NCBI GenBank assembly: GCA_034440115.1
Contig: JAWXBM010000107.1
Span: 947 to 64,946 of the forward strand
Source: Lysobacterales bacterium
GTDB lineage: Bacteria > Pseudomonadota > Gammaproteobacteria > Xanthomonadales > SZUA-36
Reading direction: 5' to 3'
Length of the DNA: 64,000 nucleotides
How positions within the stretch are numbered: position 1 is the first letter of the stretch; each line of letters begins with the position of its first letter. Positions 7,364-33,345 of this stretch are shown piece by piece. Under the pieces are notes generated by a model that had not been told where the DNA came from, made no database searches, and worked only from the letters and a program-made list of their open reading frames with translations. The translations under genes and the position numbers were made by a program.

Positions 7364-7392
7364 TCATGGCGTAAGAACCACGTACGCAAAGG

Positions 7393-8772: not shown

Positions 8773-9102
8773 TGTTGGTCAGAAAGCCCTGTGGGGAATG
8801 ATCAAGGATTGGTCCATTACTATCTGCAGCCTGTTTCCACAAGCTGAAGACTGATTGACCATAACGGACTGTGGGCCTGTATACCGCATCAAGTGTGTTC
8901 CAGGTAGGGAAAAACGTAGCGCTTGCCTGACATCCGGCTGGACATAATAATCGGGCCCGCCGCTGCATGCCATTGTTGTGCATTGATGATCTGAACACAC
9001 TTTTCGGGCAGAGTTCTTCGACCAAGCCATTTAGCCCAGTTCGTCAGCCAGATTCTTCTGTTAAAATGCCGCCTCTTTTGTGGTGCAGTATTTGGAGTTT
9101 TC

Positions 9103-10527
9103 TTGAGCGTCAGAACCCGTTTTGCCCCCAGCCCAACTGGCTTCCTGCATGTGGGCGGTGCCCGCACCGCCTTGTTCTGCTATTTGCAGGCAAGGGCCAA
9201 AGGCGGCCAGTTCATTTTGCGTATCGAAGATACCGATCTTGAGCGTTCCACCGAGGAGTCGGTGCAAGCCATTCTGAATGGCATGCACTGGCTGGGGCTG
9301 GATTATGACGAAGGTCCGATTTTCCAGACGCATCGCTTTGCGCGTTACGCCGAAGTGACCCGAACTTTGCTGGCTGAGAACAAGGCTTATCACTGCTACT
9401 GCCCCAAAGATCGCCTGGAAATATTGCGCGAACAGCAGATGCAGCAAGGTCTTAAGCCCCGTTATGATGGCCTGTGTCGTGATCGTAAAGATATCCCCCA
9501 AGATATTTCCCGGAGCATCAAGCCGGTGGTGCGTTTCCGCAATCCCGACGAGGGCGATGTAAGCTGGGACGATGCCGTTCGTGGGCTGATCAGTATTTCC
9601 AATACCGAACTGGATGACCTGGTGATTGCCCGGCCAGATGGCTCACCCACTTACAATTTCACCGTGGTGGTTGACGACATCGATATGGCAGTTTCGCTGG
9701 TGATTCGCGGGGATGACCACATCAACAACACACCTCGTCAGATTAATATTTATCGCGCCCTGGGCGCTGAATTACCCCGCTTTGCCCATGTGCCGATGAT
9801 TCTGGGTGCGGATGGTGCGCGGTTATCCAAACGCCACGGTGCAGTGGGTGTGATGCAGTATCGTGATGACGGTTATCTGCCGCAGGCACTGCTGAATTAT
9901 CTGGTGCGGCTGGGTTGGTCGCATGGTGACCAGGAAGTGTTCAGCATGGCGGAAATGATCGAATACTTCGATATAGTTGATGTTAATCGCAAGGCGGCAG
10001 CCTTTGATTACAACAAGCTGGATTGGTTGAATCAACACTATATGCGGGAGCTGCCTGCATCTGAAGTGGCTGCTCATCTGCGCTGGCATATGGATCATGT
10101 TGGCTTGAATGTGCAGAGTGGACCGGCTCTTGCCGATCTGGTAACTGTGCAGTCCGAGCGGGTTAAAACCCTGAAGGAAATGGCCGCAGTCAGTACCGTG
10201 TACTATCAGGACTATGATGATTTTGAGCCCACTGCCGCCAAAAAACATTTGCGCCTAGTGGCAGCGGAACCTTTGCAGGCCATTCGTGCCAGTCTGGCAG
10301 CAGTGGTAGATTGGCAACCCGAAGCACTGGATCAAGCGGTGCACCAGACCGCTGAAGGGCTGGGCGTTAATATGGGCAAGGTAGCGCAACCTTTGCGCGT
10401 GGCGCTGACCGGCACTTCAGTTTCTCCGGCGATCGATAAAACCCTGTGGCTGGTTGGTAAAGATCGCAGCCTGGAGCGCATCGATCGGGCATTGCAGTTT
10501 ATCGAGCAGCGTGGTGCTGCAGAGTAA
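9103..10527 (+). CDS. gltX: Glutamate--tRNA ligase
   Basis: TTG start with GGAG upstream. 'RTRFAPSPTGFLHVGGARTALF' (HIGH region) and 'LSKRHG' (KMSKS). Confidence 0.95.
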   Translation: MSVRTRFAPSPTGFLHVGGARTALFCYLQARAKGGQFILRIEDTDLERSTEESVQAILNGMHWLGLDYDEGPIFQTHRFARYAEVTRTLLAENKAYHCYCPKDRLEILREQQMQQGLKPRYDGLCRDRKDIPQDISRSIKPVVRFRNPDEGDVSWDDAVRGLISISNTELDDLVIARPDGSPTYNFTVVVDDIDMAVSLVIRGDDHINNTPRQINIYRALGAELPRFAHVPMILGADGARLSKRHGAVGVMQYRDDGYLPQALLNYLVRLGWSHGDQEVFSMAEMIEYFDIVDVNRKAAAFDYNKLDWLNQHYMRELPASEVAAHLRWHMDHVGLNVQSGPALADLVTVQSERVKTLKEMAAVSTVYYQDYDDFEPTAAKKHLRLVAAEPLQAIRASLAAVVDWQPEALDQAVHQTAEGLGVNMGKVAQPLRVALTGTSVSPAIDKTLWLVGKDRSLERIDRALQFIEQRGAAE

Positions 10528-10558
10528 GCTGCACATTCGAAAGTATTGAGGGGCGTGA

Positions 10559-11530
10559 ATGTCGAAAGTTGAGCGGCTATACCACCTGCATAACATCCTG
10601 AATCAGCGGCGTACACCGATTTCGCGGCAGGATCTGATGGAGCGGCTGGAATGTTCACAGGCGACTCTGTACCGTCTGGTCGGTGAGTTGCGGGATTTTC
10701 TCGGCGCGCCGATTGAGCAGGATGCCGACAACCGGGGTTTTTATTACGATCGCGGCTTGGATCAGCCCTTCGACTTGCCGGGTATCTGGATCAGTCCTGC
10801 CGAACTGCAAGCTCTGCTGACTGCCCGCCAGGTGCTGGGCAATGTGCAACCGGGTTTGCTGGAAGGTGAGCTGGAATCCCTGCAGGGGCGCATTACTGCT
10901 TTGCTGCGGCAGAAGGGCATCGAGGCCGAGGGCGGAGATTCGCGTATCCATATCCAGAGTGCTGCATCTCGAGCAGTTCCCGCTCGTATGTTCCAGGACA
11001 TACTGGCTGCACTGATCAAACGTCAGCGTCTGCAGATCAGTTATCACGGGCGGCGCAAAGATGAAGTCAGCGAGCGCAGCATCTCACCGCAACGCTTGAC
11101 CCAATATCGTAATTCCTGGTATCTGGATGCCTGGTGCCATGATGCCAATGGTTTGAGAAGCTTTGCATTAGAACGGGTCCGTGAGCAAAAGCTGCTGGAT
11201 GAGATGGCTAAAGAGGTTAGTGACAAGGACCTGGCTGCTCACTTTGATCGTTCTTACGGCATTTTTTCCGGGCCGGCAGAGCATATTGCGGAGCTGCGTT
11301 TCAGCCAGGAAATGTCGCGCTGGGTGGCCGATGAATCATGGCATCCGGATCAGCAAGGTTCATGTGATACAGAAGGACGTTGGCTACTGAAATTACCCTT
11401 CAGCAGTGCCCGCGAACTGGTCATGGACATCCTGCGCTATGGCAGCGATGTGGAAGTGCTGGCACCTGACTTTCTGCGGGATATCGTCGTCGAAGTTGCT
11501 CAGCGTACAGTGGAACAATACAAGACTTAG
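10559..11530 (+). CDS. HTH + WYL domain transcriptional regulator (YafY family)
   Basis: N-terminal HTH 'ISRQDLMERLECSQATLYRLVGELR' and a central WYL domain 'ISYHGRRKDEVSERSISPQRLTQYRNSWYLDAWCHDANGLRSFALERV'. Confidence 0.8.
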   Translation: MSKVERLYHLHNILNQRRTPISRQDLMERLECSQATLYRLVGELRDFLGAPIEQDADNRGFYYDRGLDQPFDLPGIWISPAELQALLTARQVLGNVQPGLLEGELESLQGRITALLRQKGIEAEGGDSRIHIQSAASRAVPARMFQDILAALIKRQRLQISYHGRRKDEVSERSISPQRLTQYRNSWYLDAWCHDANGLRSFALERVREQKLLDEMAKEVSDKDLAAHFDRSYGIFSGPAEHIAELRFSQEMSRWVADESWHPDQQGSCDTEGRWLLKLPFSSARELVMDILRYGSDVEVLAPDFLRDIVVEVAQRTVEQYKT

Positions 11531-11536
11531 GTTCAC

Positions 11537-11700
11537 CAATGCGTCATCCCGGGCTCTCACTGCGTCATCCCGGCCTCTCACTGCGTCATCCCGGGCTCTC
11601 ACTGCGTCATCCCGGCCTCTCACTGCGTCATCCCGGGCTCTCACTGCGTCATCCCGGGCTCTCACTGCGTCATCCCGGACCTGATCCGGGATCCAACACC
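11537..11700. repeat. 21-bp tandem minisatellite (6 full units) ending in a REP-like half-palindrome
   Basis: Units 'CACTGCGTCATCCCGG[G/C]CTCT' begin at 11537, 11558, 11579, 11600, 11621 and 11642. The final unit, from 11663, continues as 'CACTGCGTCATCCCGGACCTGATCCGGGATCCAACACC'. The array starts 7 nt after the stop of the WYL gene. Confidence 0.9.
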
Positions 11701-11901
11701 CGCTGAATAGTGCCCGTTGCTGTTCCCCCGGCTCGTTTCACGGCCCTGTATCTCCGCGTAAACTGCTTGCGGCTGCCATCACAAAGATTGGGCTGTCAAG
11801 TCTTTGATCGAGATTCCATAATGTTTCAGGAATATATAACCTGAGTAGTATCGAGCCCGAGTGCTGACAATATATGATCAGGGCTGAAAAGGAGAACTAC
11901 C

Positions 11902-13149
11902 ATGAGTACAATGCACCCGGAACTGTTCAACCTCACGATGTCCGCCGAGGCTCAGCCACTGCTCGACGCAGTCAAGCGCCATATCGCAGACCATGTCGAC
12001 CCCATTACCGAAGAGTTTTTTTCGCTTAATGTGGGCAAGGAAAACCGCTGGAGTTATACACCACGGCAATTGGAGTTGCTTGAGGGTGCCAAGAGCAAAG
12101 CGAAGGAAGCTGGTTTGTGGAATTTTTTCCTGCCTGATGCCGGATCCGGCGAGGGGCTGAATAATCTGGACTATGCCTACATCGCGGTTGAACTGGGCAA
12201 GAGTCCGCTGGCCTCGGAAAGTCTCAACTGCAGTGCTCCTGACACCGGCAATATGGAAGTGCTGGAACGTGTGGGAACGGCGGAGCAAAAGCAACGTTGG
12301 TTGAAACCGCTGCTGGCGGGTGAAATCCGTTCCGCTTATGCCATGACTGAACCAGCAGTGGCTTCGTCCGATGCGACCAACATCTGTACTTCGGCGGTGC
12401 TGGAGGGTGGCGAGTGGGTAATAAACGGTGAGAAGTATTACATCTCCGGCGCCGGTGACCCACGTTGCAGGATCATGATCACCATGGTCAAGACCAGTCC
12501 GGATGCCAAGCCGTTTTACCAACAGTCGCAGATCCTGGTGCCCATGGACACGCCCGGGGTCGAAATCGTCGGGCCGATGCATGCCTTTGGCGAAGATTCC
12601 GCGCCTCACGGACATATGCACATCCGTTTCAAGAATGTTCGAGTACCTGAGGAAAACATACTGCTTGGCGAAGGCCGTGGCTTCGAGATCTCGCAGTTGC
12701 GTTTGGGCCCGGGCCGTATCCACCATTGCATGCGTTCTATCGGCCAGGCGGAAAAAGCGCTGGAGTTGATGGTCAAACGCGCCAGTACCCGTATCGCGTT
12801 CGGTAAACCGATTGTCAAGTTGGGCAAAAACCTCGAGGTGGTAGCCCGTGCGCGCATCGAAATCGATGCCTGCCGCTTGATGGTGCTACAGGCAGCCAAA
12901 GCCATGGACGTGTTGGGTAACAAGGAAGCGCGCATCTATGTGAGCGCGATCAAAGCGATGGTTCCGGAAAAAGTTTGCAAGATCATCGACCAAGCCATCC
13001 AGATGCACGGGGCAACCGGGCTTTCAGAATGGACGCCGCTGGCCAGCATGTACACCTCTCAGCGCACTCTGCGTTTTGCCGACGGGCCGGATGAAGTGCA
13101 TCACATGGTGGTCGGGCGTAATGAGGTTCGAAAATACGGGTTGTGGTAG
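11902..13149 (+). CDS. Acyl-CoA dehydrogenase family protein
   Basis: 415 aa with a strong SD (AAAGGAGAA). ACAD features include 'YAMTEPAVASSDATNI', 'WVINGEKYYISGAGD' and a C-terminal 'ADGPDEVH'. Confidence 0.88.
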   Translation: MSTMHPELFNLTMSAEAQPLLDAVKRHIADHVDPITEEFFSLNVGKENRWSYTPRQLELLEGAKSKAKEAGLWNFFLPDAGSGEGLNNLDYAYIAVELGKSPLASESLNCSAPDTGNMEVLERVGTAEQKQRWLKPLLAGEIRSAYAMTEPAVASSDATNICTSAVLEGGEWVINGEKYYISGAGDPRCRIMITMVKTSPDAKPFYQQSQILVPMDTPGVEIVGPMHAFGEDSAPHGHMHIRFKNVRVPEENILLGEGRGFEISQLRLGPGRIHHCMRSIGQAEKALELMVKRASTRIAFGKPIVKLGKNLEVVARARIEIDACRLMVLQAAKAMDVLGNKEARIYVSAIKAMVPEKVCKIIDQAIQMHGATGLSEWTPLASMYTSQRTLRFADGPDEVHHMVVGRNEVRKYGLW

Positions 13150-13257
13150 TTCAATAAACGCAAGCTGCGCCGCGTTACCTTCAGCGGTGATCGTCCGCTA
13201 TACCAGCTTGAATAAAATATGCCAGGGAATTTTTGGACCTTTTTTGTTTTGCCATTC

Positions 13258-13403
13258 CGAATTCTTTATTTCGTCCTCCCGAATTATTTTTATTTCGTCC
13301 TCCCGGGCCTGACCCGGCAACCACACCACTCCGTCATCCCGGGCCTGACCCGGGATCCAATACCACGTCAATTATGGATCCCGGCTCGGAGGCCGGGATG
13401 ACG
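13258..13403. repeat. Composite REP-like element: tandem short repeats plus a ~72-bp imperfect palindrome
   Basis: Tandem 'CCGAATT(C/A)TTT..ATTTCGTCCTC' x2 comes first. Then 'CGTCCTCCCGGGCCTGACCCGGCAACCACACC', then 'CGTCATCCCGGGCCTGACCCGGGATCCAATACC...TTATGGATCCCGGCTCGGAGGCCGGGATGACG' with inverted arms. The motif is the same as at 11663-11700. Confidence 0.85.
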
Positions 13404-13485
13404 CCCTAGAGGACACACTGGCAACTTTCTCATGCTTTGAGAAGAGCAGGTGCTTTGATGTACCCACGCACTAAGGAGTACATCC

Positions 13486-13821
13486 ATGAACCTGTCACTT
13501 TATTTATTGCTGGCGCCTTCTGCCGATACTGAACAGCCTTCGGGAGTTGACCAGCAGCCCAGGCAAAAGGCCAAGCAAATAGTTGGGCCGAAAGCTAGAC
13601 AAGATTTTGTTCCGGTATACAACCCGCTCCAAACCAGCAGAGCCGGAAGCAGACGTCTGGTTCAGGCCACTCGCAAACCCATTCTTGCTCCAGCGAGCAA
13701 GGCAACCACCTTCCAGTCCATTGGGTTTGGCATGTCAGTTGTCGCCCATGCCCTGGGCTTTCTCACCATAACGGCTGCAGCCCTGTTGCTACTGCGAGTG
13801 GCCGAAATGAGTTTGATCTGA
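13486..13821 (+). CDS. Hypothetical small protein with a C-terminal hydrophobic helix (doubtful)
   Basis: 111-aa ORF with a good SD (AAGGAG 7 nt upstream of the ATG) and the C-terminal segment 'VVAHALGFLTITAAALLLLRV'. I recognise no family. It sits in a repeat-rich convergent intergenic gap. Confidence 0.3.
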   Translation: MNLSLYLLLAPSADTEQPSGVDQQPRQKAKQIVGPKARQDFVPVYNPLQTSRAGSRRLVQATRKPILAPASKATTFQSIGFGMSVVAHALGFLTITAAALLLLRVAEMSLI

Positions 13822-13860
13822 ATCTTTTCTATCCGGTTTGTCCTTGTGCGGAAGCAGAAG

Positions 13861-15387
13861 CTATGCAGCAGCAGACTCTTGAGCGACTGCCAGCATGGGG
13901 CCTTTCAAAAGGGCCTGCCGGGTAGCGGCTATGATCAGGTCGACCTCGGCAGAGGTGATGCGGAAATGGGGTGTATAGCGCAAAGCGTTGTGGCCACCGT
14001 GGATCACGTTGCAACCCTGGATGCGCATGTATTCCTCGGTGGAATCGGCGCCATAACATTTGTACAGCTTGCTGTTGAGCTCCAGGCTGAACAACAGGCC
14101 CGTACCCTGCACACGCGTGATGCGATCACCGAGTTCTTTCTGCAAAGCGGTGAGTTTTTCCACAAACTCCCGACCGCGCTCAACAATGTTTTTGCGTATT
14201 TCCGGGGTCAATGCTTGCAACACCGCACAGCCCACGTCCATGGCGCGTGGATTGGTGGTCATGGTGTTGCCATAAATGCCCTTGCGATACAGCCCCGCAG
14301 CAGGTTGGCTTAAGGCCAGCACCGACAAGGGGTACTGGCCGGCATTGAGCGACTTGGAGTAGGTTTCCATATCCGGCGGAATGGCATCCTGGAAACCGGG
14401 GTAGTCAATAATGGACAACACACCATGCGCCCGCAGGCCGGCCTGGATGGAATCTACCATCATCAAGCAGCCATGCTCGGTAGTGAGTTCACGGACGGCA
14501 TCGTAGAATTCACGACTGATGGCCTGGCCCGGGTTTCCCTCACCCATGACCGGTTCCATGAAGAAGGACTCGATGAACACATTACTGGTTTTAGCCCAAT
14601 CAAAAATCTGCCGAAGTTGTTCGACGTTGTTGGGCTCAACCGTCAGCAATCGATCCTGGTCACGGAAGCTGGCCAGGTGGCGCACATAGGTTTGCCGGCT
14701 GGAGTCAGAGAATTGTGCAGGCCGGTCCGTGCGGCCATGGAAACCGCCACAAAGACTGGCCATGCGAATGGTCTTATTGGCGTGTCGGCCACCTGGGTCG
14801 GTCATGAGTTTGGCGTTTACGTCGGAAATTCGGGCAGCCAGGCCGACGGCCTCAGAGCCACTGTTGAGGCACAGGAATTGATTCAAGGGGCAACCATCAC
14901 TGCGGGTATGGCCGATTTCTTTGACCAGGGCATCGTGCAAACGCTTCTGACTGATGTTCGGTGTCATGACGTTGGCCATAACCTGTTGCTGATTCATGGC
15001 CTGCAGGATTTCTGCAGGCGCATGGCCCAGACCCAACATGCCGTAACCGCCCGAGTCATGGATGACCGCACCTTTCATGGTGATGATCCACGGGCCTCGA
15101 CCAGCCAGTGCGGAGTAGGGCTTCACTGCATCTTCGGGGTAAAAATTGATAAATCCCTGTTGGATGGAAGCAATCTGGCTGTCTTCATCCAAAGCCATAA
15201 AATCAGGATCTTCGTTGCACAACTGGTGGAAGCGGGTTACGGCTGCATCAACCGCTTCCTCCAGCCGGTGGTCCAAGGCAGCAAAGCGCACAATGATGGC
15301 ATCAGCCAAACCACTGGTTTGTGCCTCACCGCCAAATTCACGTAATTCCCGCAATTTCTCAACAATGGGCAGGTTTTGAGTACCCAT
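13861..15387 (-). CDS. Class III (omega-type) PLP-dependent aminotransferase with an N-terminal extension
   Basis: 508 aa. Contains 'LNSGSEAVGLAARI', 'GGFHGRT', 'MMVDSIQAGLRAHG' and 'YSKSLNAGQYPLS' (putative PLP lysine). Confidence 0.82.
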   Translation of the reverse strand: MGTQNLPIVEKLRELREFGGEAQTSGLADAIIVRFAALDHRLEEAVDAAVTRFHQLCNEDPDFMALDEDSQIASIQQGFINFYPEDAVKPYSALAGRGPWIITMKGAVIHDSGGYGMLGLGHAPAEILQAMNQQQVMANVMTPNISQKRLHDALVKEIGHTRSDGCPLNQFLCLNSGSEAVGLAARISDVNAKLMTDPGGRHANKTIRMASLCGGFHGRTDRPAQFSDSSRQTYVRHLASFRDQDRLLTVEPNNVEQLRQIFDWAKTSNVFIESFFMEPVMGEGNPGQAISREFYDAVRELTTEHGCLMMVDSIQAGLRAHGVLSIIDYPGFQDAIPPDMETYSKSLNAGQYPLSVLALSQPAAGLYRKGIYGNTMTTNPRAMDVGCAVLQALTPEIRKNIVERGREFVEKLTALQKELGDRITRVQGTGLLFSLELNSKLYKCYGADSTEEYMRIQGCNVIHGGHNALRYTPHFRITSAEVDLIIAATRQALLKGPMLAVAQESAAA

Positions 15388-23326: not shown

Positions 23327-24646
23327 TTGTTTGACCGGGCGGAGCGAGGCGATCGTGCGATCGTGCTCCACCCGGTTTTCCGTTCTACCGGGCCGGAATA
23401 CTTAGACGAATATCAGGAACTGGCGCGCTCCGCCGGGGCCGAGGTTGTAGGTGTTCTGACTGCTCCCAGGGATAGACCGGACGCCCGCTATTACGTGGGT
23501 AAAGGCAAGATTGAGCAACTGGTTGCGCTGGTGAAGGAATCTGAAGCTGACCTGGTCTTGGTCAGCCAGGCACTCAGTGCAGTGCAGGAACGCAATATCG
23601 AAAAAGCCTGTGGTTGCCGTGTGCTGGATCGCAATTCGCTGATACTCGACATTTTCGCCCAACGCGCCCAATCCTATGAAGGCAAACTGCAGGTTGAGCT
23701 GGCGCAATTGCGTCATCTTTCCACTCGGCTGATTCGGGGCTGGACCCATCTGGAGCGGCAAAAAGGCGGTATGGGCTTGCGCCGCCCGGGTGAAACCCAG
23801 TTCGAAACCGACCGCAGATTGATCGCAACGCGCATTAGCCAGTTGAATGAACGGCTGGATAAAGTTGCCAGTCAGCGCGAACAGAGTCGACGTCAGCGGG
23901 TGAAATCCCGCCATCCTTTGGTCGCATTGGTGGGTTATACCAATGCGGGCAAGTCTACCTTGTTCAATTTGCTTACCGGCGCTGAGGTCATTGCCGTGGA
24001 CCAGTTGTTCGCTACCCTGGACCCTACCGTGCGTCGCCTGGAAGGCCTTTCCTGCGGCGAAATCCTGTTGGCCGACACGGTTGGTTTTGTCAGCGATCTA
24101 CCCCACGAACTGATTGCTGCTTTTCGCGCCACTTTGCAGGAAGCCCGTGAGGCGGATCTGCTGCTGCATGTGATCGACGCCTCTGATCCCTACCATTCCG
24201 AACGCCAGGCCGATGTCGAGGAAGTTCTGGAATCCATCGGTGCGGCGGACATTCCGGTGATACGGGTGTTGAACAAGATAGATCGCAGTGGCCAGCCAGC
24301 GCAAAGCCATGCTCACGAAAACGGCCAGGTGCATACCGTTGCTGTGTCGGCATTGAGTGGCGAAGGCATCGAACTGCTTAAACAGGCCATGAGTGATCAT
24401 TTGTCTGGCAGCAGGTTCGTTCACTGGCTAGAACTGCAGGGCAAGGATGCACGATTACGGGCAGCTTTGTTCGAACTGGGTGCTGTCAGCGAAGAGCGGA
24501 TTACCGACAATGGCGCCTGGTTGTTGCATGTTGATTTACCTTTGGAAACCGCCCAGCGACTGGCGCGCATGCCAGGTAATGGTGGCGCGGCCATAGAGCA
24601 GCAACTTTTGAATAATAATTTGCCCAAGAATTTGACGGCGGCATAA
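23327..24646 (+). CDS. hflX: Ribosome rescue GTPase HflX
   Basis: 'GETQFETDRR', G1 'GYTNAGKSTLFN', G3 'DTVGF', G4 'NKID'. Alternative start codon immediately after hfq. Confidence 0.93.
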   Translation: MFDRAERGDRAIVLHPVFRSTGPEYLDEYQELARSAGAEVVGVLTAPRDRPDARYYVGKGKIEQLVALVKESEADLVLVSQALSAVQERNIEKACGCRVLDRNSLILDIFAQRAQSYEGKLQVELAQLRHLSTRLIRGWTHLERQKGGMGLRRPGETQFETDRRLIATRISQLNERLDKVASQREQSRRQRVKSRHPLVALVGYTNAGKSTLFNLLTGAEVIAVDQLFATLDPTVRRLEGLSCGEILLADTVGFVSDLPHELIAAFRATLQEAREADLLLHVIDASDPYHSERQADVEEVLESIGAADIPVIRVLNKIDRSGQPAQSHAHENGQVHTVAVSALSGEGIELLKQAMSDHLSGSRFVHWLELQGKDARLRAALFELGAVSEERITDNGAWLLHVDLPLETAQRLARMPGNGGAAIEQQLLNNNLPKNLTAA

Positions 24647-24767
24647 GCTGCCAACTGAACGTACAATAGATTGCCTTGAAACATGGCCCCTTGAACCCAA
24701 GCTATGCTGGGCGTCTTATTTTTAACCCTACATACCAAATTGAGCTGATGCAATACTGGAGAAGTTG

Positions 24768-25907
24768 ATGCCCTGGAAAGAACCTGGCAAAGGTAATAAA
24801 GATCCGTGGAATTCCGGTGATCAACCACCTGACCTGGATGAAGTTTTTCGTAACGTGAATCGCAAGTTGAAGTCGATATTCGGCGGTGGCGGTGGTCGGA
24901 ATTCGGAATCCAGCAGCGGTGGTAGCGGTGCCGGTGGCATCCTGTCCATCATCGTGATCGCGGCGTTATTGTGGGTAGGTTGGAATTCAGTCCACATTAT
25001 TGATCAGGCAGAACGTGGCGTTGTGTTGCGTTTCGGTAAATACAATCGAACGCTGGATCCTGGCATCAATGTGACTTTGCCCAGCCCGATCGAGAGCCTC
25101 ATGACGGTCAACATCAGCAATGTACGTTCAGTCGAAGACCGGGGCCAGATGCTGACCGAAGACGAAAATCTCGTCGAGCTCGATTTCACCATCCAGTACC
25201 GTGTGCTGGAAGCCCAGGATTTCCTGTTCCGCGTGCGCGACCCGGAGCTGACCCTGCAATCTGCAGCCGAAAGCGCCTTGCGGGAGTCGGTGGGAACCAA
25301 TCGCATGGATACCATTCTGGCGGGTGCCGGTCGAGAGAAAGTAGCGCAAGACACCGAGCGGGCACTGCAGGAGACTCTGGACCTGTACGAAGCCGGTATC
25401 CAGGTGACCGAATTCACCCTCAGGGATGTCAATGTGCCACTGCAGGTACGTGATGCCTTCTCGGATGTGAATAAAGCCCGTGAAGATCGCCAGCGCTTTA
25501 TCGAAGAATCGCGGGTACACGCCAACAGCGTGGTGCCAGAGGCCAGAGGTCAGGCGGCACGGATTCTGCAGGAAGCTGAAGGCTACAAGCAGTCCACCAT
25601 TGCGCTGGCCGAAGGTCAAGCCATGCGTTTCGACCTGGTTTTGGCTGAATATCTCAAAGCGCCGCAAATTACCCGCAAACGCTTGTATTTGCAGACCATG
25701 GAAAGTGTTTTGGGCAGTTCTTCCAAAGTGTTCCTGGATGCGCAATCCAATGGCAATGTGCTGTATCTGCCGCTGGATAAAATGGTGGGTGCGCCGGATT
25801 CATCGGGCGGCTCAAACATGCCACCGCTGGTCACGCCGCAATCCGGCCAGGACAGTAATGGCAGCTCATCATCCAGTCGGACACCACGCAAGGAGGGTCG
25901 GCAATGA
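24768..25907 (+). CDS. hflK: FtsH protease modulator HflK
   Basis: 'MPWKEPGKGNKDPW', one TM segment, and a band-7/SPFH domain. ATG at 24768 with GGAGAAG upstream. Confidence 0.92.
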   Translation: MPWKEPGKGNKDPWNSGDQPPDLDEVFRNVNRKLKSIFGGGGGRNSESSSGGSGAGGILSIIVIAALLWVGWNSVHIIDQAERGVVLRFGKYNRTLDPGINVTLPSPIESLMTVNISNVRSVEDRGQMLTEDENLVELDFTIQYRVLEAQDFLFRVRDPELTLQSAAESALRESVGTNRMDTILAGAGREKVAQDTERALQETLDLYEAGIQVTEFTLRDVNVPLQVRDAFSDVNKAREDRQRFIEESRVHANSVVPEARGQAARILQEAEGYKQSTIALAEGQAMRFDLVLAEYLKAPQITRKRLYLQTMESVLGSSSKVFLDAQSNGNVLYLPLDKMVGAPDSSGGSNMPPLVTPQSGQDSNGSSSSSRTPRKEGRQ

Positions 25908-26770
25908 ACAAGACAATAATTTTGATAGCGGTGGTGATACTTGGGATTCTGGGTCTGTCCAGCATGTTCGTTGTGTCTGAAACTGAGTATGCGATAAAAT
26001 TTCAATTGGGCCGCATAGTGAAAGCAGACTATCAGCCTGGCCTGCATTTCAAGTTGCCGTTTGTGAACAATGTGCGCAAGTTTGACCGGCGCATACTGAC
26101 CCTGGATACGCCCTCTGAATTGATGCTGACTTCCGAACAGAAATTCGTCAACGTGGATTCTTTCGTCAAGTGGCAGATCAAAGACGTATCCAAGTTCTAC
26201 ATCTCGACTGAAGGTATGGAGTTACGTGCGCTCAATCGCCTGGAACAGATCATCAAGGACAGGATGCGGGCACAGATTGCCAGCAAAACCCTGGTTGAAG
26301 TGGTGTCGCAGGAACGTGTGAACATCATGCGCGGTATCCAGGAAGCCGCCAGCATCGCCACCGGCGATGAGTTCGGCATCGAAGTTCTGGATGTGCGTAT
26401 CAAGTCGATTGAACTACCTGAAGACGTGCGTGAATCGGTATTCCGCCGCATGGCCACTGATCGGCAGAAAGAGGCCAATCTGTTGCGCTCCCAGGGTCGC
26501 GAAGAGGCTCAGGCCATAACCGCCAATGCAGATCGGGAAGTGCAGGTCTTGCTGGCTGAAGCCGAGCGGGATGGCCAAACCATGCGCGGTGAAGGCGATG
26601 CGCGTGCGACCGAGCTTTATTCCAAGTCCTATGGAGCAGATGAAGAATTCTATGCCTTCTATCGCAGCCTGGAGGCTTACACCAAGGCCTTTGGTGGCAA
26701 CCAGGATGTGATGGTGCTGGACAAATCGTCGGAGTTTTTCAATTATTTTGGCAACGAGTCGATTCAGTAA
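25904..26770 (+). CDS. hflC: FtsH protease modulator HflC
   Basis: ATGA overlap with the hflK stop. N-terminal TM segment plus an SPFH domain. Confidence 0.92.
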   Translation: MNKTIILIAVVILGILGLSSMFVVSETEYAIKFQLGRIVKADYQPGLHFKLPFVNNVRKFDRRILTLDTPSELMLTSEQKFVNVDSFVKWQIKDVSKFYISTEGMELRALNRLEQIIKDRMRAQIASKTLVEVVSQERVNIMRGIQEAASIATGDEFGIEVLDVRIKSIELPEDVRESVFRRMATDRQKEANLLRSQGREEAQAITANADREVQVLLAEAERDGQTMRGEGDARATELYSKSYGADEEFYAFYRSLEAYTKAFGGNQDVMVLDKSSEFFNYFGNESIQ

Positions 26771-26805
26771 GCTGATTCAGTAAGCACAGATAGGGGCTGA
26801 AGTCC

Positions 26806-26991
26806 ATGATGCAGGACCTGCTGAGCGCGTTTGCCTTGTTGCTGATCATTGAAGGTTTGATGCCAGGCATTGCACCAGCAGCCTGGCAGAAATACCTGGC
26901 AGAAATCATTCGCATGAATCCGAAAACGGTACGGGTTGCTGGTATCGTCAGCATGCTGGCGGGAGCCCTGCTGCTGCAATTTCTGCACTGA
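26806..26991 (+). CDS. DUF2065-like small membrane protein (YjeT-like)
   Basis: 61 aa with two hydrophobic helices ('LLIIEGLMPGIAP', 'VAGIVSMLAGALLL'). Same position as E. coli yjeT after hflC. Confidence 0.75.
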   Translation: MMQDLLSAFALLLIIEGLMPGIAPAAWQKYLAEIIRMNPKTVRVAGIVSMLAGALLLQFLH

Positions 26992-27045
26992 TCCAATTCA
27001 TAGAAAACTAACCCTCCTGCCGCATGGCTCGAGAAGAAATCATGA

Positions 27046-28353
<1,308 letters not shown>

Positions 28354-28424
28354 TAAAGTGACTTGCCTTGCTTGCACAGAGGTATAGAATTCAGTTATTC
28401 GAGTTCGTTTAAAGGAGGATGTAT

Positions 28425-28532
28425 ATGAGCAACAAGGAAATGAAGGTCAAGAAGGAAGCCAAGAAAAAGCCGGCTTTGACCATGAAAGAAAAGAAAGCGG
28501 TCAAGAATGCCAAGAAGGCTTCAAAAAAATAG
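28425..28532 (+). CDS. Putative 35-aa lysine-rich small protein
   Basis: Not in the ORF track because it is under 60 aa. AAAGGAGG lies 7 nt upstream of the ATG. Translation is 'MSNKEMKVKKEAKKKPALTMKEKKAVKNAKKASKK', followed directly by a strong hairpin terminator. Confidence 0.45.
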   Translation: MSNKEMKVKKEAKKKPALTMKEKKAVKNAKKASKK

Positions 28533-28594
28533 TAAAAAAAATGCCCCGCATGCGGGGCATTTTCACTTTTTCTTCTTCTGTGCTCTGTTCTTAC
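28530..28594. repeat. Left copy of a ~65-bp direct repeat (stop codon + terminator hairpin + T/C-rich tail)
   Basis: 'TAGTAAAAAAAATGCCCCGCATGCGGGGCATTTTCACTTTTTCTTCTTCTGTGCTCTGTTCTTAC' recurs at 29996-30061. The first 39 nt differ at one position. Confidence 0.9.
28534..28564. terminator. Bidirectional rho-independent terminator
   Basis: Perfect 20-nt palindrome 'ATGCCCCGCATGCGGGGCAT' at 28541-28560, flanked by an A-run upstream and a T-run downstream. Confidence 0.75.
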
Positions 28595-28639
28595 TGGTCA
28601 CTGTCTGGTTCCCGGAACCTATCTTTACGTAACCATCAA

Positions 28640-28653
28640 TTCTGTCGACAGAA
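28640..28653. promoter_or_regulatory. Perfect 14-bp palindrome upstream of the cassette (candidate operator)
   Basis: 'TTCTGTCGACAGAA' lies 63 nt upstream of the wHTH gene start. Further TGTC/GACA-containing imperfect inverted repeats occur at about 28675-28695 ('GTGTCCCTAGTCCTAGGACAG'). Confidence 0.35.
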
Positions 28654-28715
28654 AACGGTGAAACATGATCTAGTGTCCCTAGTCCTAGGACAGAGGACGC
28701 GACGGTGAGGAGACC

Positions 28716-29294
28716 ATGAAAAGTCAGGATATATTTATATTGCTCAAGCTTGTGAGCTTGTCTCGGCGGGAGGAATCCGGCGCGATGCCGGCGGCAGTTG
28801 GCTCCGCTAATATAAACGCAGTCAGTGATTGCTATTCTGCCAGGGGGTTAGCGGCGACCTTGGGTATTAGTAAAACGGAAGTGAACGCTTCGATCAATCG
28901 TAGCATCGCCGTTGGTATGGCAAAACATGACCGAATAACGGGCCATCCCAAAGCGAATAGTCGCGCTCTTCTTGAATTCATTTGTCATGGCTTGAAGTAT
29001 GTTTTTCCTGCCAAACCAGCAGAGATAGCCAGAGGTATCCCGACGGCCTTTGAAGCACCCGCATTAAAGGGCGCGCTTATGAGCGCCGGGGAATACATTT
29101 ATGTCTGGCCCGATGCTAAAGGTAACGAGAAAGGTCAATCTGTTAGCCCTCTGTTTAAAAGCGTACCGGAGGCTGTAAAAAAGGACTCGCTGCTTTATGA
29201 GTATTTGGTATTAGTCGATGCCATACGTTTGGGGAACCCTCGTGAGTCGAAGCTTGCTATTAGCATGCTTGAAGATAGACTCAACTCCCCATGA
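28716..29294 (+). CDS. Winged-HTH protein, putative antitoxin/regulator partner of the downstream nucleotidyltransferase
   Basis: 192 aa with GAGGAG 5 nt upstream of the ATG. The N-terminal region 'DIFILLKLVSL...YSARGLAATLGISKTEVNASINRSIAVGMA' reads as a MarR/AbiEi-like wHTH. I cannot assign the C-terminal domain. The stop overlaps the next gene's ATG (ATGA). Confidence 0.65.
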   Translation: MKSQDIFILLKLVSLSRREESGAMPAAVGSANINAVSDCYSARGLAATLGISKTEVNASINRSIAVGMAKHDRITGHPKANSRALLEFICHGLKYVFPAKPAEIARGIPTAFEAPALKGALMSAGEYIYVWPDAKGNEKGQSVSPLFKSVPEAVKKDSLLYEYLVLVDAIRLGNPRESKLAISMLEDRLNSP

Positions 29295-29998
29295 GCAGCG
29301 CCTGTGACCAGCTAGCAGGCATGATAGAAACGGTTGCCAGGGCTTTGGGTGATGATCTTCTCAGAGAGGGGGCTTTTGTCGGTGGCTGTAAAACAGGCTT
29401 GCTGATTACCGATGAATTCATTAAGGAAGAGGTGCGTTACACCGATGATGTTGATCTGATTATCAATGTTGTTGGTCATGCCCAGTGGGTCGTGTTTCAA
29501 GACCGGTTACGCGATAAAGGATTTCGGGAGTCCATGGAAGATGATGTTATCTGCCGCATGCGCCTTGGGGAGCTAAAAGTTGATTTCATGCCTGATGATG
29601 AAAAAATTTTGGGATTTAGCAACCGGTGGTATGAAGCCGCCCTGGAGTGTGCTCAAAATTATCAATTGAAGGATGATCTGACAATCAGGTTGCTGACACG
29701 GCCGTTTTTTGTAGCAACCAAGCTTGAAGCCTACCTTGGACGTGGCAATGACGATCCTCTGGCCAGTCATGATCTTGAGGATATTCTCAATCTCGTCGAT
29801 GGCCGGGAAGCGCTTGTCGCGGAGATTGCGGATGCTCATGCAGATGTCCGCGACTACATAGCCGAACAAGTCAGTTTTCTGCTGGACCATAGAGACTTTG
29901 AATATGCCGTGCAGGGCATCGTGCGCGGCAGTCCGGGCCGGGAAGATTTGATCTTAGAGCGTCTTGAGGCGCTAAAGGCCATGAAAGGAAGCAATTAG
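29291..29998 (+). CDS. Pol-beta-superfamily nucleotidyltransferase, AbiEii-like (putative toxin/effector)
   Basis: 235 aa. NTase signature 'FVGGCKTGLLITDEFIKEEVRYTDDVDLII' (GG ... R-Y-T-D-D-V-D-L), a downstream acidic strand 'KVDFMPDD', and the helix motif 'ATKLEAYLGRGNDDPLASHDLEDILNLV'. It is translationally coupled to the upstream gene. Confidence 0.65.
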   Translation: MSSACDQLAGMIETVARALGDDLLREGAFVGGCKTGLLITDEFIKEEVRYTDDVDLIINVVGHAQWVVFQDRLRDKGFRESMEDDVICRMRLGELKVDFMPDDEKILGFSNRWYEAALECAQNYQLKDDLTIRLLTRPFFVATKLEAYLGRGNDDPLASHDLEDILNLVDGREALVAEIADAHADVRDYIAEQVSFLLDHRDFEYAVQGIVRGSPGREDLILERLEALKAMKGSN

Positions 29999-30061
29999 TT
30001 AAAAAAATGCCCCGCATGCGGGGCATTTTCACTTATTTTTCTTCTGTGCGTTCGTTCTTGT
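29996..30061. repeat. Right copy of the ~65-bp direct repeat
   Basis: 'TAGTTAAAAAAATGCCCCGCATGCGGGGCATTTTCACTTATTTTTCTTCTGTGCGTTCGTTCTTGT'. Compare 28530-28594. Confidence 0.9.
30001..30030. terminator. Bidirectional rho-independent terminator (serves tRNA-Leu on the minus strand and the cassette on the plus strand)
   Basis: The same 20-nt palindrome at 30007-30026, flanked by A7 and T-runs. Confidence 0.75.
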
Positions 30062-30099
30062 TATTAATCCTGCAACGGACCGCATTTCCCGCTTGAAAC

Positions 30100-30186
30100 T
30101 GGTGCCCAGAAGAGGACTTGAACCTCCACTACCTTGCGATAACTAGCACCTGAAGCTAGCGCGTCTACCAATTCCGCCATCTGGGC
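30100..30186 (-). tRNA. tRNA-Leu (anticodon CAG)
   Basis: The reverse complement is 'GCCCAGATGGCGGAATTGGTAGACGCGCTAGCTTCAGGTGCTAGTTATCGCAAGGTAGTGGAGGTTCAAGTCCTCTTCTGGGCACCA' (87 nt). Acceptor stem is GCCCAGA/TCTGGGC, the anticodon loop is UUCAGGU, there is a long variable arm, and CCA is encoded. Confidence 0.95.
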
Positions 30187-30262
30187 TTTAGAGGGCAGAG
30201 GCTTAGGGGAAACCTCTGCCCGGGGTGGTTCGAGGAAAGGGGGAACCTGCGAACCGGTGCGT

Positions 30263-30291
30263 ACTTTAGTGATTCGCACCCTGACTGTCAA
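30263..30291 (-). promoter_or_regulatory. Sigma70-type promoter for tRNA-Leu
   Basis: On the minus strand: 'TTGACA' (30291-30286), a 17-nt spacer, then 'TAAAGT' (30268-30263). It lies about 75 nt upstream of the tRNA 5' end. Confidence 0.55.
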
Positions 30292-30417
30292 CCAATAAAT
30301 AGGCTTATTACTATCTGATTTTCTGCTATTTTTTGAATACTTAAAGCAACCCGGAGTGCGTTGAGGCCTGATGAATCAGGCTACAATGCGCTTCCCTGCA
30401 CGAATTAGACCTGTTTC

Positions 30418-32583
30418 ATGAGTAAAGACCAGAAAAATACCCAAGATCAACATTCCGGCGGCCACATTGATGCCGAGGCGCCAGAGCGCCAGGACATACT
30501 GGATTTGCTCACCGATCAGGGGCGCCCATTAAAGCGCAAAGAGATCACTTCGCGCCTTGAAGTCGAGTCGCCGGATAGCCGGGAAATCCTTCGCCGCCGG
30601 CTAAAAGCCATGTTGCGTGATGGCCAGTTGGTGAAAAGCCGCAACAACAGCTATGGCCTGCCGGAAAAAATGGACCTGGTGCGTGGTCGCATCAGCGCCC
30701 ACAAGGATGGCTTTGGTTTCCTCATACTCGAGAGTGGTGATACCGATTTATACCTCTCGCCCCGGCAGATGAAGCAGGTACAGCATGGCGACCAGGTACT
30801 GGCCTGTGTTACCGGCGTGGATGATCGCGGCCGTCGTGAAGGTGCCATCACCGAAGTATTGCAACGCGCCCACCAGAAAATCGTCGGCCGTTTTGTGCGC
30901 GAAAGTGGCGTTTGCCTGGTGGTGCCGGATGATCCGCGCCTGACCCAGGACGTGTTGATTCCGCTGGATGATACCGCTGGAGCCAAGCCGGGGCAGGTGG
31001 TGGTGGCGTGGATCGTCGATCCTCCGTCAGAACACAAACCGCCGGTGGGCAAGGTGGTAGAAATACTGGGTGAAACCGGTGCTCCGGGTATGGCCACGGA
31101 AATCGCCATCCGTAATTTCAGTTTGCCGCATGAGTGGCCAGAAGGCGTTGAAGCGCAGGCCGAAGCGTATGGCTCCAGTGTGCCGGAAGAAATGAAAGAC
31201 GGTCGGCGTGATCTGCGCGAACTGGCCTTGGTGACCATTGATGGCGAGGATGCGCGTGATTTTGACGACGCGGTCTTCGCCCAGCGGCGCAACAACGGCT
31301 GGCGCTTGGTCGTGGCCATTGCCGATGTCTCCAGCTATGTGCAAACCGACACCGCGCTGGATGAATCGGCGCTGGAGCGCGCTACTTCTGTGTATTTCCC
31401 TGGTCGGGTTATTCCCATGCTACCCGAAGCGCTGTCCAACGGTCTGTGTTCGCTGAATTCGGAAGTCGACCGGCTGTGCCTGGTTTGCGATATGTCTATC
31501 AATGAAGATGGCAAAGTCACGCGCTCCCGGTTTGATTCCGCCGTAATCAATTCCAAAGCCCGTCTCACCTACAACCAGGTGTGGAACTGGATTACCAGCG
31601 GCAAGGAAGAAATCCGGCCTGGGGCCAAAGAGGTTTCGCAATCCCTGCGAGACCTGTATAGCCTGTACAAGGCCATGCGCAAAGCACGCACCAAGCGCGG
31701 CGCGATTGATTTTGACAGTACCGAAGTGCGCTTTGTGTTCGATGAATCAGGCTCGGTGGCCGATATCCTGCCATATGAGCGCAACGATGCGCATATGCTG
31801 ATCGAAGAATGCATGATCGCGGCCAATGTCGAGGCTGCCAACTTTTTGCAACAGAACGCCATTCCCGCGCCGTATCGCACGCATGAGCCGCCGCAGGAAG
31901 CCAAGATCGAAAACCTCGAGCAGTTCCTTAAAGGTTTGGGGATACGCAAAACCTGGAAGGAGCAACCCGAGCCACGCGATTTTGAAGCCATTGTGCAAAG
32001 CATCAAGGGCCGCGACGACGAAGCCCTGATCATGGCCATGTTGTTGCGCTCGCAAAGCATGGCGGTTTATCAAGCCAGCAACGGCGGGCATTTTGGTCTG
32101 GCCCTGGCGGCCTATGCGCACTTTACCTCGCCCATTCGGCGTTACCCGGATTTGCTGGTGCATAGAGCTATCCACCATGTGCTGCAACACCGCAGCGCCA
32201 AGGGTTATCGCTATAGCGAAAAAGATATGGTCAAGCTCAGTGAGCATTGTTCGTTTTGCTCGCGGCGCTCTGAGGAAGCCGAGCGTGATGTCAGTGAGCG
32301 TCTCAAGTGCGTTTTCATGGAGCGTCATATTGGTGATGAATTCCGCGGCCAGGTGACCGGCGTTACCTCGTTCGGCCTGTTCGTGGAGTTGTTGCAGAAT
32401 CGTACCTCGGGGCTCATACACATCACCTCCTTGCCCAATGACTATTATCACTTTGATCCCATCTCGCATCGCCTCACCGGCGAGCGGGCGGGACGCGTTT
32501 TTCAATTGGCGCAACGTGTGAAGGTGAAGGTTGCCGGAGTCAATATCGATGATCGTAAAGTAGACTTCACCCTGGTCGAATAA
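30418..32583 (+). CDS. rnr: Ribonuclease R
   Basis: 721 aa. RNB domain ('DGEDARDFDDAVFA', 'HFGLALAAYAHFTSPIRRYPDLLVHR') and a C-terminal S1 domain. Confidence 0.95.
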   Translation: MSKDQKNTQDQHSGGHIDAEAPERQDILDLLTDQGRPLKRKEITSRLEVESPDSREILRRRLKAMLRDGQLVKSRNNSYGLPEKMDLVRGRISAHKDGFGFLILESGDTDLYLSPRQMKQVQHGDQVLACVTGVDDRGRREGAITEVLQRAHQKIVGRFVRESGVCLVVPDDPRLTQDVLIPLDDTAGAKPGQVVVAWIVDPPSEHKPPVGKVVEILGETGAPGMATEIAIRNFSLPHEWPEGVEAQAEAYGSSVPEEMKDGRRDLRELALVTIDGEDARDFDDAVFAQRRNNGWRLVVAIADVSSYVQTDTALDESALERATSVYFPGRVIPMLPEALSNGLCSLNSEVDRLCLVCDMSINEDGKVTRSRFDSAVINSKARLTYNQVWNWITSGKEEIRPGAKEVSQSLRDLYSLYKAMRKARTKRGAIDFDSTEVRFVFDESGSVADILPYERNDAHMLIEECMIAANVEAANFLQQNAIPAPYRTHEPPQEAKIENLEQFLKGLGIRKTWKEQPEPRDFEAIVQSIKGRDDEALIMAMLLRSQSMAVYQASNGGHFGLALAAYAHFTSPIRRYPDLLVHRAIHHVLQHRSAKGYRYSEKDMVKLSEHCSFCSRRSEEAERDVSERLKCVFMERHIGDEFRGQVTGVTSFGLFVELLQNRTSGLIHITSLPNDYYHFDPISHRLTGERAGRVFQLAQRVKVKVAGVNIDDRKVDFTLVE

Positions 32584-32595
32584 GGTTTTTGACGT

Positions 32596-33345
32596 ATGGC
32601 TGAAAAAAAACTGCAATGGCTGATCGGCATTCATCCCGTTTCTTCCGCGTTGGCATCAGGCAAGCAGGGCATCAGCCGCTTGGTACTGGCCAAGGAAGCA
32701 CACAATCCACGCGTGCTGGAACTGGAAGAGCTGGCACGCAAGCAAGGTATCAAAGTAGAGCGTAGCTCGCGCCGCGAGCTCGACCGCATCTCCGAGGGCG
32801 AACGGCATCAGGATGTGTTGGCAGAAGTTGCTGCCACCAATACCTGGGCCGAGTCGGATTTGCCGGCACTGCTCAATCGTATCGAAGGCACGCCGCTGAT
32901 CCTGGTGCTGGACGGTGTACAGGACCCGCACAACCTCGGTGCCTGTTTGCGCACCGCAGAGGCTGCTGGAGTGCATCTGGTCATCGTACCCAAGGACAAG
33001 TCAGCCAGTCTAACCCCTGTCGCGCGCCGGGCTGCAGCCGGGGCTGCAGAAGTGCTGGATATCGTGGTGATCACCAACCTGGCACGGGTGCTGCGATTAT
33101 TGAAGGACAGCGGCATCTGGCTGGCCGGAGCAGCCGATGAGGCCGATCAGGAAATTTACCAGGCTGATCTGAAAGGCCCCTTGGCTTTGGTGATGGGCAG
33201 CGAAGGCAAAGGTCTGCGCCGGCTTACCGTGGAGCTGTGTGATTTTCAGCTACGCATACCCATGGCAGGTTCGGTCAGCAGTCTGAATGTATCGGTAGCC
33301 ACCGGGGTGTGCTTGTTTGAAATCATCCGTCAAAGAAGCGCTTGA
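32596..33345 (+). CDS. rlmB: 23S rRNA (guanosine2251-2'-O)-methyltransferase
   Basis: SpoU/TrmH motifs 'LDGVQDPHNLGACLRTAEAAG', 'ALVMGSEGKGLRR' and 'SLNVSVATGVCLFE'. Follows rnr as in E. coli. Confidence 0.93.
   Translation: MAEKKLQWLIGIHPVSSALASGKQGISRLVLAKEAHNPRVLELEELARKQGIKVERSSRRELDRISEGERHQDVLAEVAATNTWAESDLPALLNRIEGTPLILVLDGVQDPHNLGACLRTAEAAGVHLVIVPKDKSASLTPVARRAAAGAAEVLDIVVITNLARVLRLLKDSGIWLAGAADEADQEIYQADLKGPLALVMGSEGKGLRRLTVELCDFQLRIPMAGSVSSLNVSVATGVCLFEIIRQRSA

Follow-up and report, generated by a model that had tools for sequence, protein, structure and literature searches.

A candidate two-gene toxin-antitoxin module of the AbiE/MenAT kind, inserted between purA and rnr in a Lysobacterales bacterium

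The present analysis concerns a stretch of 64,000 nucleotides from a Lysobacterales bacterium (NCBI GenBank assembly GCA_034440115.1, contig JAWXBM010000107.1, positions 947 to 64,946 of the forward strand), hereafter called the window, and in particular a cassette of two overlapping genes, gene 1 and gene 2, that lies between purA and the genes for tRNA-Leu and rnr. We read this cassette, with a probability of about 0.6, as a horizontally acquired and autoregulated two-gene toxin-antitoxin (TA) module of the AbiE/MenAT kind. The comparison with PADLOC-DB v2 indicated that it is an already listed candidate and not a canonical AbiE, as gene 1 matched PDC-M21A with an E value of 8.1e-83 (residues 1-190 on positions 1-203 of 205 of the profile) and gene 2 matched PDC-M21B with an E value of 1.6e-104 (residues 1-231 on positions 1-231 of 234), that is, over their full length and in the same gene order. 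PDC-M21 has a third gene, C, encoding a PP2C Ser/Thr phosphatase, which the window cassette does not have. The entries named PDC-x are unpublished candidate defence systems of PADLOC (PMC11811056, PMC12409345). An earlier prediction, made from the DNA sequence of the window, had described the pair as a possibly distinct and undescribed branch of such modules; in view of the PADLOC matches it can no longer be called undescribed, but it is distinct, with gene 1 being no AbiEi and both proteins falling below the thresholds of Pfam and NCBIfam, where only chance-level matches to Ints3_N and Pam3_Gp34 and weak ones to Lrs14/Sta1 helix-turn-helix (HTH) families were obtained. The possibility that it would turn out to be a canonical AbiE member was likewise not borne out, as the predicted antitoxin is of a different family and the predicted toxin lies below the threshold of PF08843 (AbiEii).

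The evidence regarding gene 2 comes from its fold and its motifs. In a fold search with the AlphaFold2 model of gene 2 (predicted local distance difference test score 91.5, predicted template modelling score 0.90), the five best PDB matches were all MenT1/MenAT1 chains, with E values from 3.8e-6 (8an5_B, MenT1) to 9.4e-5 and a probability of 1.0, indicating that the protein as modelled has a nucleotidyltransferase (NTase) fold of the AbiEii/MenT (DUF1814) kind. The motifs from which the original prediction had recognized such a signature were located at residues 29-33 (FVGGC), 49-58 (RYTDDVDLII), 96-103 (KVDFMPDD), K144 to R151, and 160-165 (HDLEDI), and they fall on columns that are conserved throughout the family, where G31, G32, R49, T51, D53, D55, D98, K144, R151, D161 and D164 were invariant in 76 homologues (39 from two-gene and 37 from three-gene loci). 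The motifs of DUF1814 have been described as G-G/S...D-x-D (I), a third acidic residue (II), K...R (III) and D-x-x-D (IV) (PMC7450476), and all of them were found in gene 2, where, by position and spacing and not by a structure-based alignment, motif I was assigned to G31-G32...D53-x-D55, motif II to D98, motif III to K144...R151 and motif IV to D161-x-x-D164. Furthermore, the spacing of R49-x-T51-x-D53-x-D55 is the same as that of R37, T39, D41 and D43 in MenT1, and the invariant Thr51 is located two residues before the first catalytic Asp, at the phospho-acceptor position. At the level of sequence families, PF08843 was matched weakly by 30 of 41 family members (best E value, 5.9e-5), and the AbiEii model of PADLOC matched the motif III-IV region of gene 2 weakly (E value, 0.0075); the profile search of PDB sequences returned a single match, 5uvd_A, a 'nucleotidyltransferase-like protein' (E value, 0.01), on the GG...R-T-E-D-V-D-L motif, and HMMER detected no sequence similarity between gene 2 and MenT1. 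Neither protein of the cassette matched the NTP_transf_2, HEPN or CD-NTase models of Pfam and PADLOC, by which membership in the HEPN-MNT and CD-NTase (cyclic-oligonucleotide-based anti-phage signalling system) groups was assessed, and the partner in HEPN-MNT is a HEPN protein, whereas the partner here is a winged helix-turn-helix (wHTH) protein. On these features, gene 2 is a predicted toxin. As a separate observation, position 52, between Thr51 and Asp53, was occupied by Asp in 36 of the 37 three-gene loci and by Asp (21), Glu (16), Asn (1) or Gln (1) in the two-gene loci, and no other clear difference in sequence was seen between two-gene and three-gene loci.

Gene 1 consists of an N-terminal MarR-like wHTH domain (residues ~33-96) and a C-terminal domain (~97-192). 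Its model was good for residues 1-21 and 40-96, with helices at 42-49 and 53-65 and a wing at 69-80, low in confidence for ~100-145, and helical for 150-190, with block means of ~81-89. The fold search gave no match with an E value below 0.09, the structures listed being generic DtxR, IdeR, MarR and NsrR regulators aligned with the N-terminal half alone, and nothing aligned with the C-terminal half; the profile search of PDB sequences gave an archaeal wHTH protein (E value, 0.067), and Pfam matched MarR_2 weakly in 15 of 41 family members, together with other weak HTH matches. None of these 41 members matched the AbiEi families of Pfam, and the 50 best matches in the fold search with gene 1 did not include the AbiEi structure 6y8q. 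Thus, of the MarR/AbiEi-like wHTH originally proposed, the MarR-like part was confirmed and the AbiEi identity was not: gene 1 is a MarR-like winged-helix protein and no AbiEi, with roles as autorepressor and antitoxin being predicted. The C-terminal 97 residues matched 1,645 cluster representatives (641 at E values of 1e-10 or less), and because nearly all of them are 160-270 aa long and carry it C-terminally, the domain is considered to be family-specific. The most conserved stretch of gene 1, residues 98-150, is also the poorly modelled one, a combination that may be expected of a segment folding on a partner.

The two genes were found to be tightly linked throughout the family. The gene 2 profile detected at least 387 relatives among 185,579 species-representative genomes, and in the best 80 loci, each from a different species, a gene 1 homologue was located directly upstream of the gene 2 homologue in all 80, which answers in the affirmative the question of co-occurrence raised by the original prediction. 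In the window, both open reading frames (ORFs) were found on the plus strand at exactly the positions predicted, sharing the 4 nt ATGA at 29291-29294, and the gene order, the overlap and the linkage all agree with the AbiE-like organization that had been pointed out. Furthermore, a 24-bp palindrome was present just upstream of gene A, the gene 1 homologue, in 78 of 79 loci, usually 12-18 nt from the A start, with 85 sites in total across 1.23 Mb, and the alignment indicated that it is conserved while the surrounding intergenic DNA is not. In the window, the palindrome lies directly 3' of TCGACA-18-TCTAGT, which we assign as a promoter-like element from its sequence and from the alignment with relatives, which have TTGACA at the -35-like position; a consensus promoter scan did not pick up this element in the window. 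The palindrome is thus likely to be the operator of the gene 1 wHTH protein. Its interpretation as an RNA hairpin was rejected, as the N3 spacers neither pair nor covary (CTA vs AGA in the window) and a DNA operator fits better. Dy and colleagues reportedly found in 2014 that the promoter of AbiEi contains inverted repeats to which the protein itself binds, and an inverted-repeat operator of that type would be expected for the cassette.

The insertion of the cassette was demonstrated by comparison with uninterrupted loci. The insert is 1.47 kb in length, preceded by hflC, DUF2065, purA and a 35-aa Lys-rich ORF, and followed by tRNA-Leu(CAG), rnr and rlmB; its GC content of 0.494, compared with 0.546 for the window, 0.554 for purA and 0.563 for rnr, is in accordance with the AT-richer character noted originally. 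A repeat search and a two-strand terminator scan revealed that it is flanked by copies of a 57-nt direct repeat, which are 93% identical and each contain a perfect bidirectional terminator hairpin. Two empty sites, reached via cluster members of purA and rnr (L089, GCA_964470455.1, and L090, a Joint Genome Institute metagenome), show the order hflK-hflC-DUF2065-purA-small ORF-terminator-tRNA-Leu-rnr-rlmB without interruption, in DNA ~77-78% identical to the window and with just one copy of the terminator between the small ORF and tRNA-Leu, where the cassette is lacking, so that the proposal that the cassette interrupts a conserved core neighbourhood now has direct support. No empty site was matched in metagenome contigs by the tRNA-Leu-adjacent 24-mer or the terminator 29-mer. 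A chance origin of the 57-nt repeat was ruled out by the 93% identity and by its correspondence with the terminator that the empty sites have in one copy. The 57-nt duplication exceeds an ordinary transposase target duplication in length, and no integrase was found near the cassette in the window.

Two loci of a sister lineage (L082 and L084), with an overall DNA identity of 91-93% to the window, carry the cassette at the same site and in the layout without C. Their left hairpin has the spelling of the empty sites (AGGCCCC...GGGGCCT) and their right copy is spelled differently, whereas both hairpin copies in the window carry the second, non-native spelling and are identical to each other; this pattern suggests gene conversion between the copies, or donor and recipient sequences that differed at the time of insertion. 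The synonymous divergence between the window and L082 was 0.57 for purA, 0.16 for gene 1 and 0.10 for gene 2, and because the values for the cassette are far below that for purA, the cassette is younger than the split of the hosts or has been exchanged between them. The right terminator copy of L082 was also observed to have a compensatory pair change (ATACCCC...GGGGTAT). In addition, a metagenome contig that is 100% identical to positions 24425-28564 of the window (L081) ends within the left terminator hairpin, and several other contigs end in or close to the right repeat; short-read assembly appears to break off at the repeat, or else only part of the population may carry the cassette.

With respect to the third gene of the family, 73 loci had space for it downstream of B, the gene 2 homologue; gene C (~230-256 aa) was present there, directly after B, in 35 of them and absent in the other 38. 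It matched PDC-M21C of PADLOC (E values down to 6e-82), PP2C_2 of Pfam and, distantly, the Stp1/IreP PP2C phosphatase of NCBIfam, and the metal-binding Asp motifs of PP2C were invariant in it. In the window, a terminator and then tRNA-Leu come after the gene 2 stop codon, with no C adjoining B, and tblastn of the whole window with six C proteins gave a best E value of 0.25. In the tree of B proteins, the window falls inside a clade that otherwise consists entirely of A-B-C loci, comprising its nearest relatives L001 (Kineobactrum sediminis), L087, L088 and L004, whose gene 2 is 68-82% identical to that of the window, with L001, where C occupies positions 10708-11463, at 82%; clades of two-gene loci only were found elsewhere in the tree, among Pseudomonas and sphingomonads. 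Because all of the nearest gene 2 relatives carry C, its absence in the window is considered to be derived, and the window copy either lost gene C or never received it. The cassette had been described as an intact unit, which is correct for the two ORFs and doubtful for the unit as a whole, given that the third gene of its close relatives is missing.

The relatives are often located inside type I restriction-modification (R-M) operons or integrase-bearing islands. The Pseudomonas loci have the order hsdR-A-B-hsdM-hsdS, and in three Pseudomonas-group loci (L056, L063 and L072, at ~6900-14500) A-B was observed between hsdR and hsdM-hsdS in the same orientation. The tRNA-cleaving PrrC sits inside the prr type I locus, which the presence of A-B in a type I R-M operon recalls. 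In L087, two integrases are followed by A-B-C-hsdM-hsdS-GmrSD-hsdR, and L088 has A-B-C, an nSTAND NTPase, an MvaI-type restriction enzyme and a methyltransferase. In a descriptive tally of 139 immediate neighbours from 35 loci, type I R-M domains and phage integrases were the commonest Pfam matches, with TIR, NERD and ArdC also occurring, and the PADLOC scan of these neighbours gave mostly redundant R-M models and little beyond Pfam. A gene 2 homologue was found on 118 of 72,556 plasmid records. Near one relative, in a gammaproteobacterial metagenome-assembled genome (L012, 10975-17082, plus strand), an ORF of 2,035 aa directly 3' of A-B was observed, which has a weak AAA_22 match as its sole Pfam match and may encode a large STAND-like defence protein.

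To place the cassette among known systems, MenAT1 of M. tuberculosis (MenA1/MenT1, Rv0078B/Rv0078A) gives the best structural match of gene 2, and in both the partner gene comes before the NTase gene. MenT1 and gene 2 have in common the R-x-T-x-D-x-D layout, the Thr at the acceptor position and the downstream Lys and Asp motifs, although gene 2 is ~40-60 residues longer than the matched MenT1 chains, and MenA1 is a protein of 68 aa with no DNA-binding domain (PMC7450476), whereas gene 1 encodes a 192-aa wHTH protein. T39 of MenT1 is the auto-phosphorylation site at which the toxin is inactivated (PMC11375011), and the positions comparable to Thr51 of gene 2 are T39 in MenT1, S78 in MenT3 and T65 in AbiEii. 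The same was reported for T65 of AbiEii, the activity of which was restored in vitro on dephosphorylation by the PP2C-type phosphatase SaSTP, with the in vivo role of phosphatases in the re-activation of AbiE being left open (preprint 10.64898/2026.01.19.700257). In the same preprint, AbiE is proposed to be a type VII system, in which the antitoxin induces auto-phosphorylation of the toxin, and the type IV label in the original prediction is dated in this respect. AbiE of Streptococcus agalactiae and the cassette both have a wHTH partner gene upstream of an NTase toxin or predicted toxin gene, and the family of the cassette gives the weak PF08843/AbiEii signal mentioned above; they differ in that the AbiE toxin belongs to PF08843 and gene 2 lies below its threshold, in that gene 1 matches no AbiEi family, and in that AbiE is acted on by a housekeeping phosphatase from another locus, while relatives of the cassette bring a phosphatase gene of their own.

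On this basis, a working scheme can be put forward. By analogy with MenT1, MenT3 and AbiEii, gene 2 would extend the 3'-CCA ends of tRNAs by further nucleotides and thereby halt translation. The wHTH domain of gene 1 would bind the 24-bp palindrome over its own promoter, leading to autorepression, and its family-specific C-terminal domain would neutralize gene 2. The binding of gene 1 would, as in MenA1/MenT1, MenA3/MenT3 and AbiEi/AbiEii, likely induce auto-phosphorylation of gene 2 at Thr51, and in relatives with gene C, the PP2C would remove this phosphate to re-arm the toxin. In the window copy, which has no C, re-activation would require a phosphatase of the host or the production of fresh toxin. 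The role of the module would probably be phage defence of the abortive-infection type or the stabilization of mobile DNA. Of the elements of this scheme, the fold and motifs of gene 2, the linkage of the genes, the conservation of the palindrome, the insertion, and which loci have gene C were observed directly, whereas toxicity, the tRNA target, the antitoxin activity, phosphorylation and defence are inferred.

Dephosphorylation as the arming step is strongly hinted at, because the PP2C gene is located directly behind the toxin gene in about half of the family and because the phosphorylation of AbiEii can be reversed by a phosphatase in vitro. A literature search combining AbiEii and PP2C found no paper that links an operon-encoded PP2C to toxin arming. 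As a more tentative extension, which we consider possible but rather less probable than the TA reading itself, the PDC-M21 family could be a three-component phospho-switch, in which A drives the auto-phosphorylation of B at Thr51 and C re-arms B, perhaps when phage infection or the loss of A is sensed, and two-gene forms such as that in the window would be 'phosphatase-minus' variants, either dependent on phosphatases of the host or functioning purely in addiction. The control of DUF1814 toxins (AbiEii and MenT1-4) by antitoxin-induced auto-phosphorylation was shown only recently, and the family bears on the question of what re-activates them in cells: an invariant acceptor Thr, together with a PP2C behind the toxin in about half of the loci, is a natural genetic hint that dephosphorylation means activation. 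Moreover, natural variants that have the phosphatase and matched ones that lack it exist within the family, with the window copy as a C-less derivative nested among three-gene relatives, so that the phospho-switch could be tested directly. If the phospho-switch holds true, the family would be the first case of a DUF1814 toxin system that encodes its own activator, and it would answer the question posed in the 2026 AbiE preprint about phosphatases in the re-activation of the toxin in vivo. The family also adds a predicted antitoxin type, composed of a MarR-like wHTH and a family-specific C-terminal domain, with a sharply conserved 24-bp candidate operator.

Several results have to be set against the TA reading. 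The fold match between gene 2 and MenT1 is moderate (template modelling scores of 0.43-0.66 and root-mean-square deviations of 6-10 A), and gene 2 of the window itself matched neither PF08843 at E values up to 1 nor anything in NCBIfam. Neither by sequence nor by fold was gene 1 found to be related to AbiEi or another known antitoxin, and the middle segment of its C-terminal half (~100-145) is poorly modelled. Many loci lie in ordinary, non-defence surroundings, some of them beside housekeeping genes; tblastn of 50,697 phage records found no gene 2 homologue, and a scan of viral contigs with the gene 2 profile gave 56 pattern matches, none of which was a relative. Two other PDC-x systems showed no defence phenotype when tested (PMC12409345), and a literature search for 'PDC-M21' found no publication or experiment. 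Finally, the estimate of selection on the two genes given below is based on just ~25-30 substitutions per gene.

Among the alternatives, the one that fares best, although we consider it rather unlikely, is that the two-gene form is a decaying relic of a working A-B-C unit, which after the loss of C would be locked off or drifting and would have no current function. The derived absence of C in the window, with L001, L087, L088 and L004 all having it, is consistent with such decay, and truncated C genes in L018, L034, L045, L062 and L080 indicate that C does decay. However, both ORFs of the window are intact and keep every catalytic residue, and the ratio of nonsynonymous to synonymous divergence against the sister lineage L082/L084, which is itself C-less in layout, was ~0.2 for gene 1 and gene 2. 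Furthermore, the Pseudomonas and sphingomonad clades with two genes only still conserve A, B and the operator, and C is absent from as many as 38 of the 73 loci.

It is improbable, in our view, that gene 2 is a non-toxic small-molecule nucleotidylyltransferase, such as an enzyme resembling ANT(2'')-Ia, under the control of gene 1 as a substrate-responsive MarR-type repressor. ANT(2'')-Ia formed the second group of fold matches of gene 2 (E values of 2.8e-3 to 4e-2 and template modelling scores of 0.45-0.58), gene 1 resembles ligand-responsive repressors of the MarR and DtxR types, and the cassette is mobile and occurs on plasmids. The overall NTase fold is common to the two, but the MenT1 toxin gives the better fold matches, there is no sequence-family match to ANT(2'')-Ia, and the weak but consistent sequence signal is that of AbiEii and not of ANT families. 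The DUF1814-specific motif IV (D161..D164), which is invariant in the family, does not fit such an enzyme, nor do the partner genes and the genomic context: a dedicated PP2C and a position within type I R-M operons would hardly be expected of a resistance enzyme.

An equally improbable alternative is a regulatory circuit with no TA function, in which gene 1 would be just a transcription factor, gene 2 would nucleotidylylate a protein or make a signalling nucleotide, and the PP2C would act on another phosphoprotein; the missing relation of gene 1 to antitoxins and the loci among housekeeping genes favour it, but the adjacency in 80 of 80 loci and the ATGA overlap in the window are expected of partners made in fixed proportion, the conserved and poorly modelled segment 98-150 fits a partner-binding region, the C-terminal domain of gene 1 is almost confined to the A architecture, and no CD-NTase model of PADLOC was matched. 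The features of the locus on which the TA reading draws are given, with their surroundings, in Table 1.

Table 1. Positions of the cassette, its flanking repeats, its candidate control elements and its neighbours in the window.
Feature	Position	Strand	Description
purA	27061-28353		upstream neighbour
Lys-rich ORF	28425-28532	+	35 aa; just 3' of purA
Left copy of 57-nt direct repeat	28527-28583		contains stop codon of Lys-rich ORF and bidirectional terminator hairpin (28538-28563)
Promoter-like element	28645-28674	+	-35-like TCGACA (28645-28650), 18-nt spacer with TG, -10-like TCTAGT (28669-28674)
24-bp palindrome (likely operator)	28675-28698		GTCCCTAGTCCTAGGACAGAGGAC; GTCC-N3-GTCC-N2-GGAC-N3-GGAC; 17 nt 5' of gene 1 ATG
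Gene 1	28716-29294	+	192 aa; PDC-M21A-like; NCBI 'transcriptional regulator', MDZ4730730.1
Gene 2	29291-29998	+	235 aa; PDC-M21B-like; NCBI 'hypothetical protein SH820_12390', MDZ4730731.1
Right copy of 57-nt direct repeat	29993-30049		contains stop codon of gene 2 and terminator hairpin (30004-30029); right end of insert
tRNA-Leu(CAG)	30100-30186	-	downstream neighbour
tRNA-Leu leader region	30187-30291	-	promoter-like TTGACA-17-TAAAGT
rnr	30418-32583		downstream neighbour, followed by rlmB

Two further observations were made in the neighbourhood of the cassette. A search of positions 26000-33000 against Rfam at a relaxed threshold returned the tRNA alone, the matches of OrzO-P and sau-6072 on the terminator being far below threshold. 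The leader region of tRNA-Leu(CAG), which matched no Rfam family, has its promoter-like element ~75 nt upstream of the tRNA and contains two hairpins, one of them with a 12-bp stem; its minimum free energy was -33.5 kcal/mol, with a z score of -6.2 compared with shuffled sequences, and the region is conserved in both empty sites. The Lys-rich ORF (MSNKEMKVKKEAKKKPALTMKEKKAVKNAKKASKK) matched no NCBIfam family; it is preceded by a good Shine-Dalgarno sequence, and a 34-aa version of it is kept at the same place in L089 and L090.

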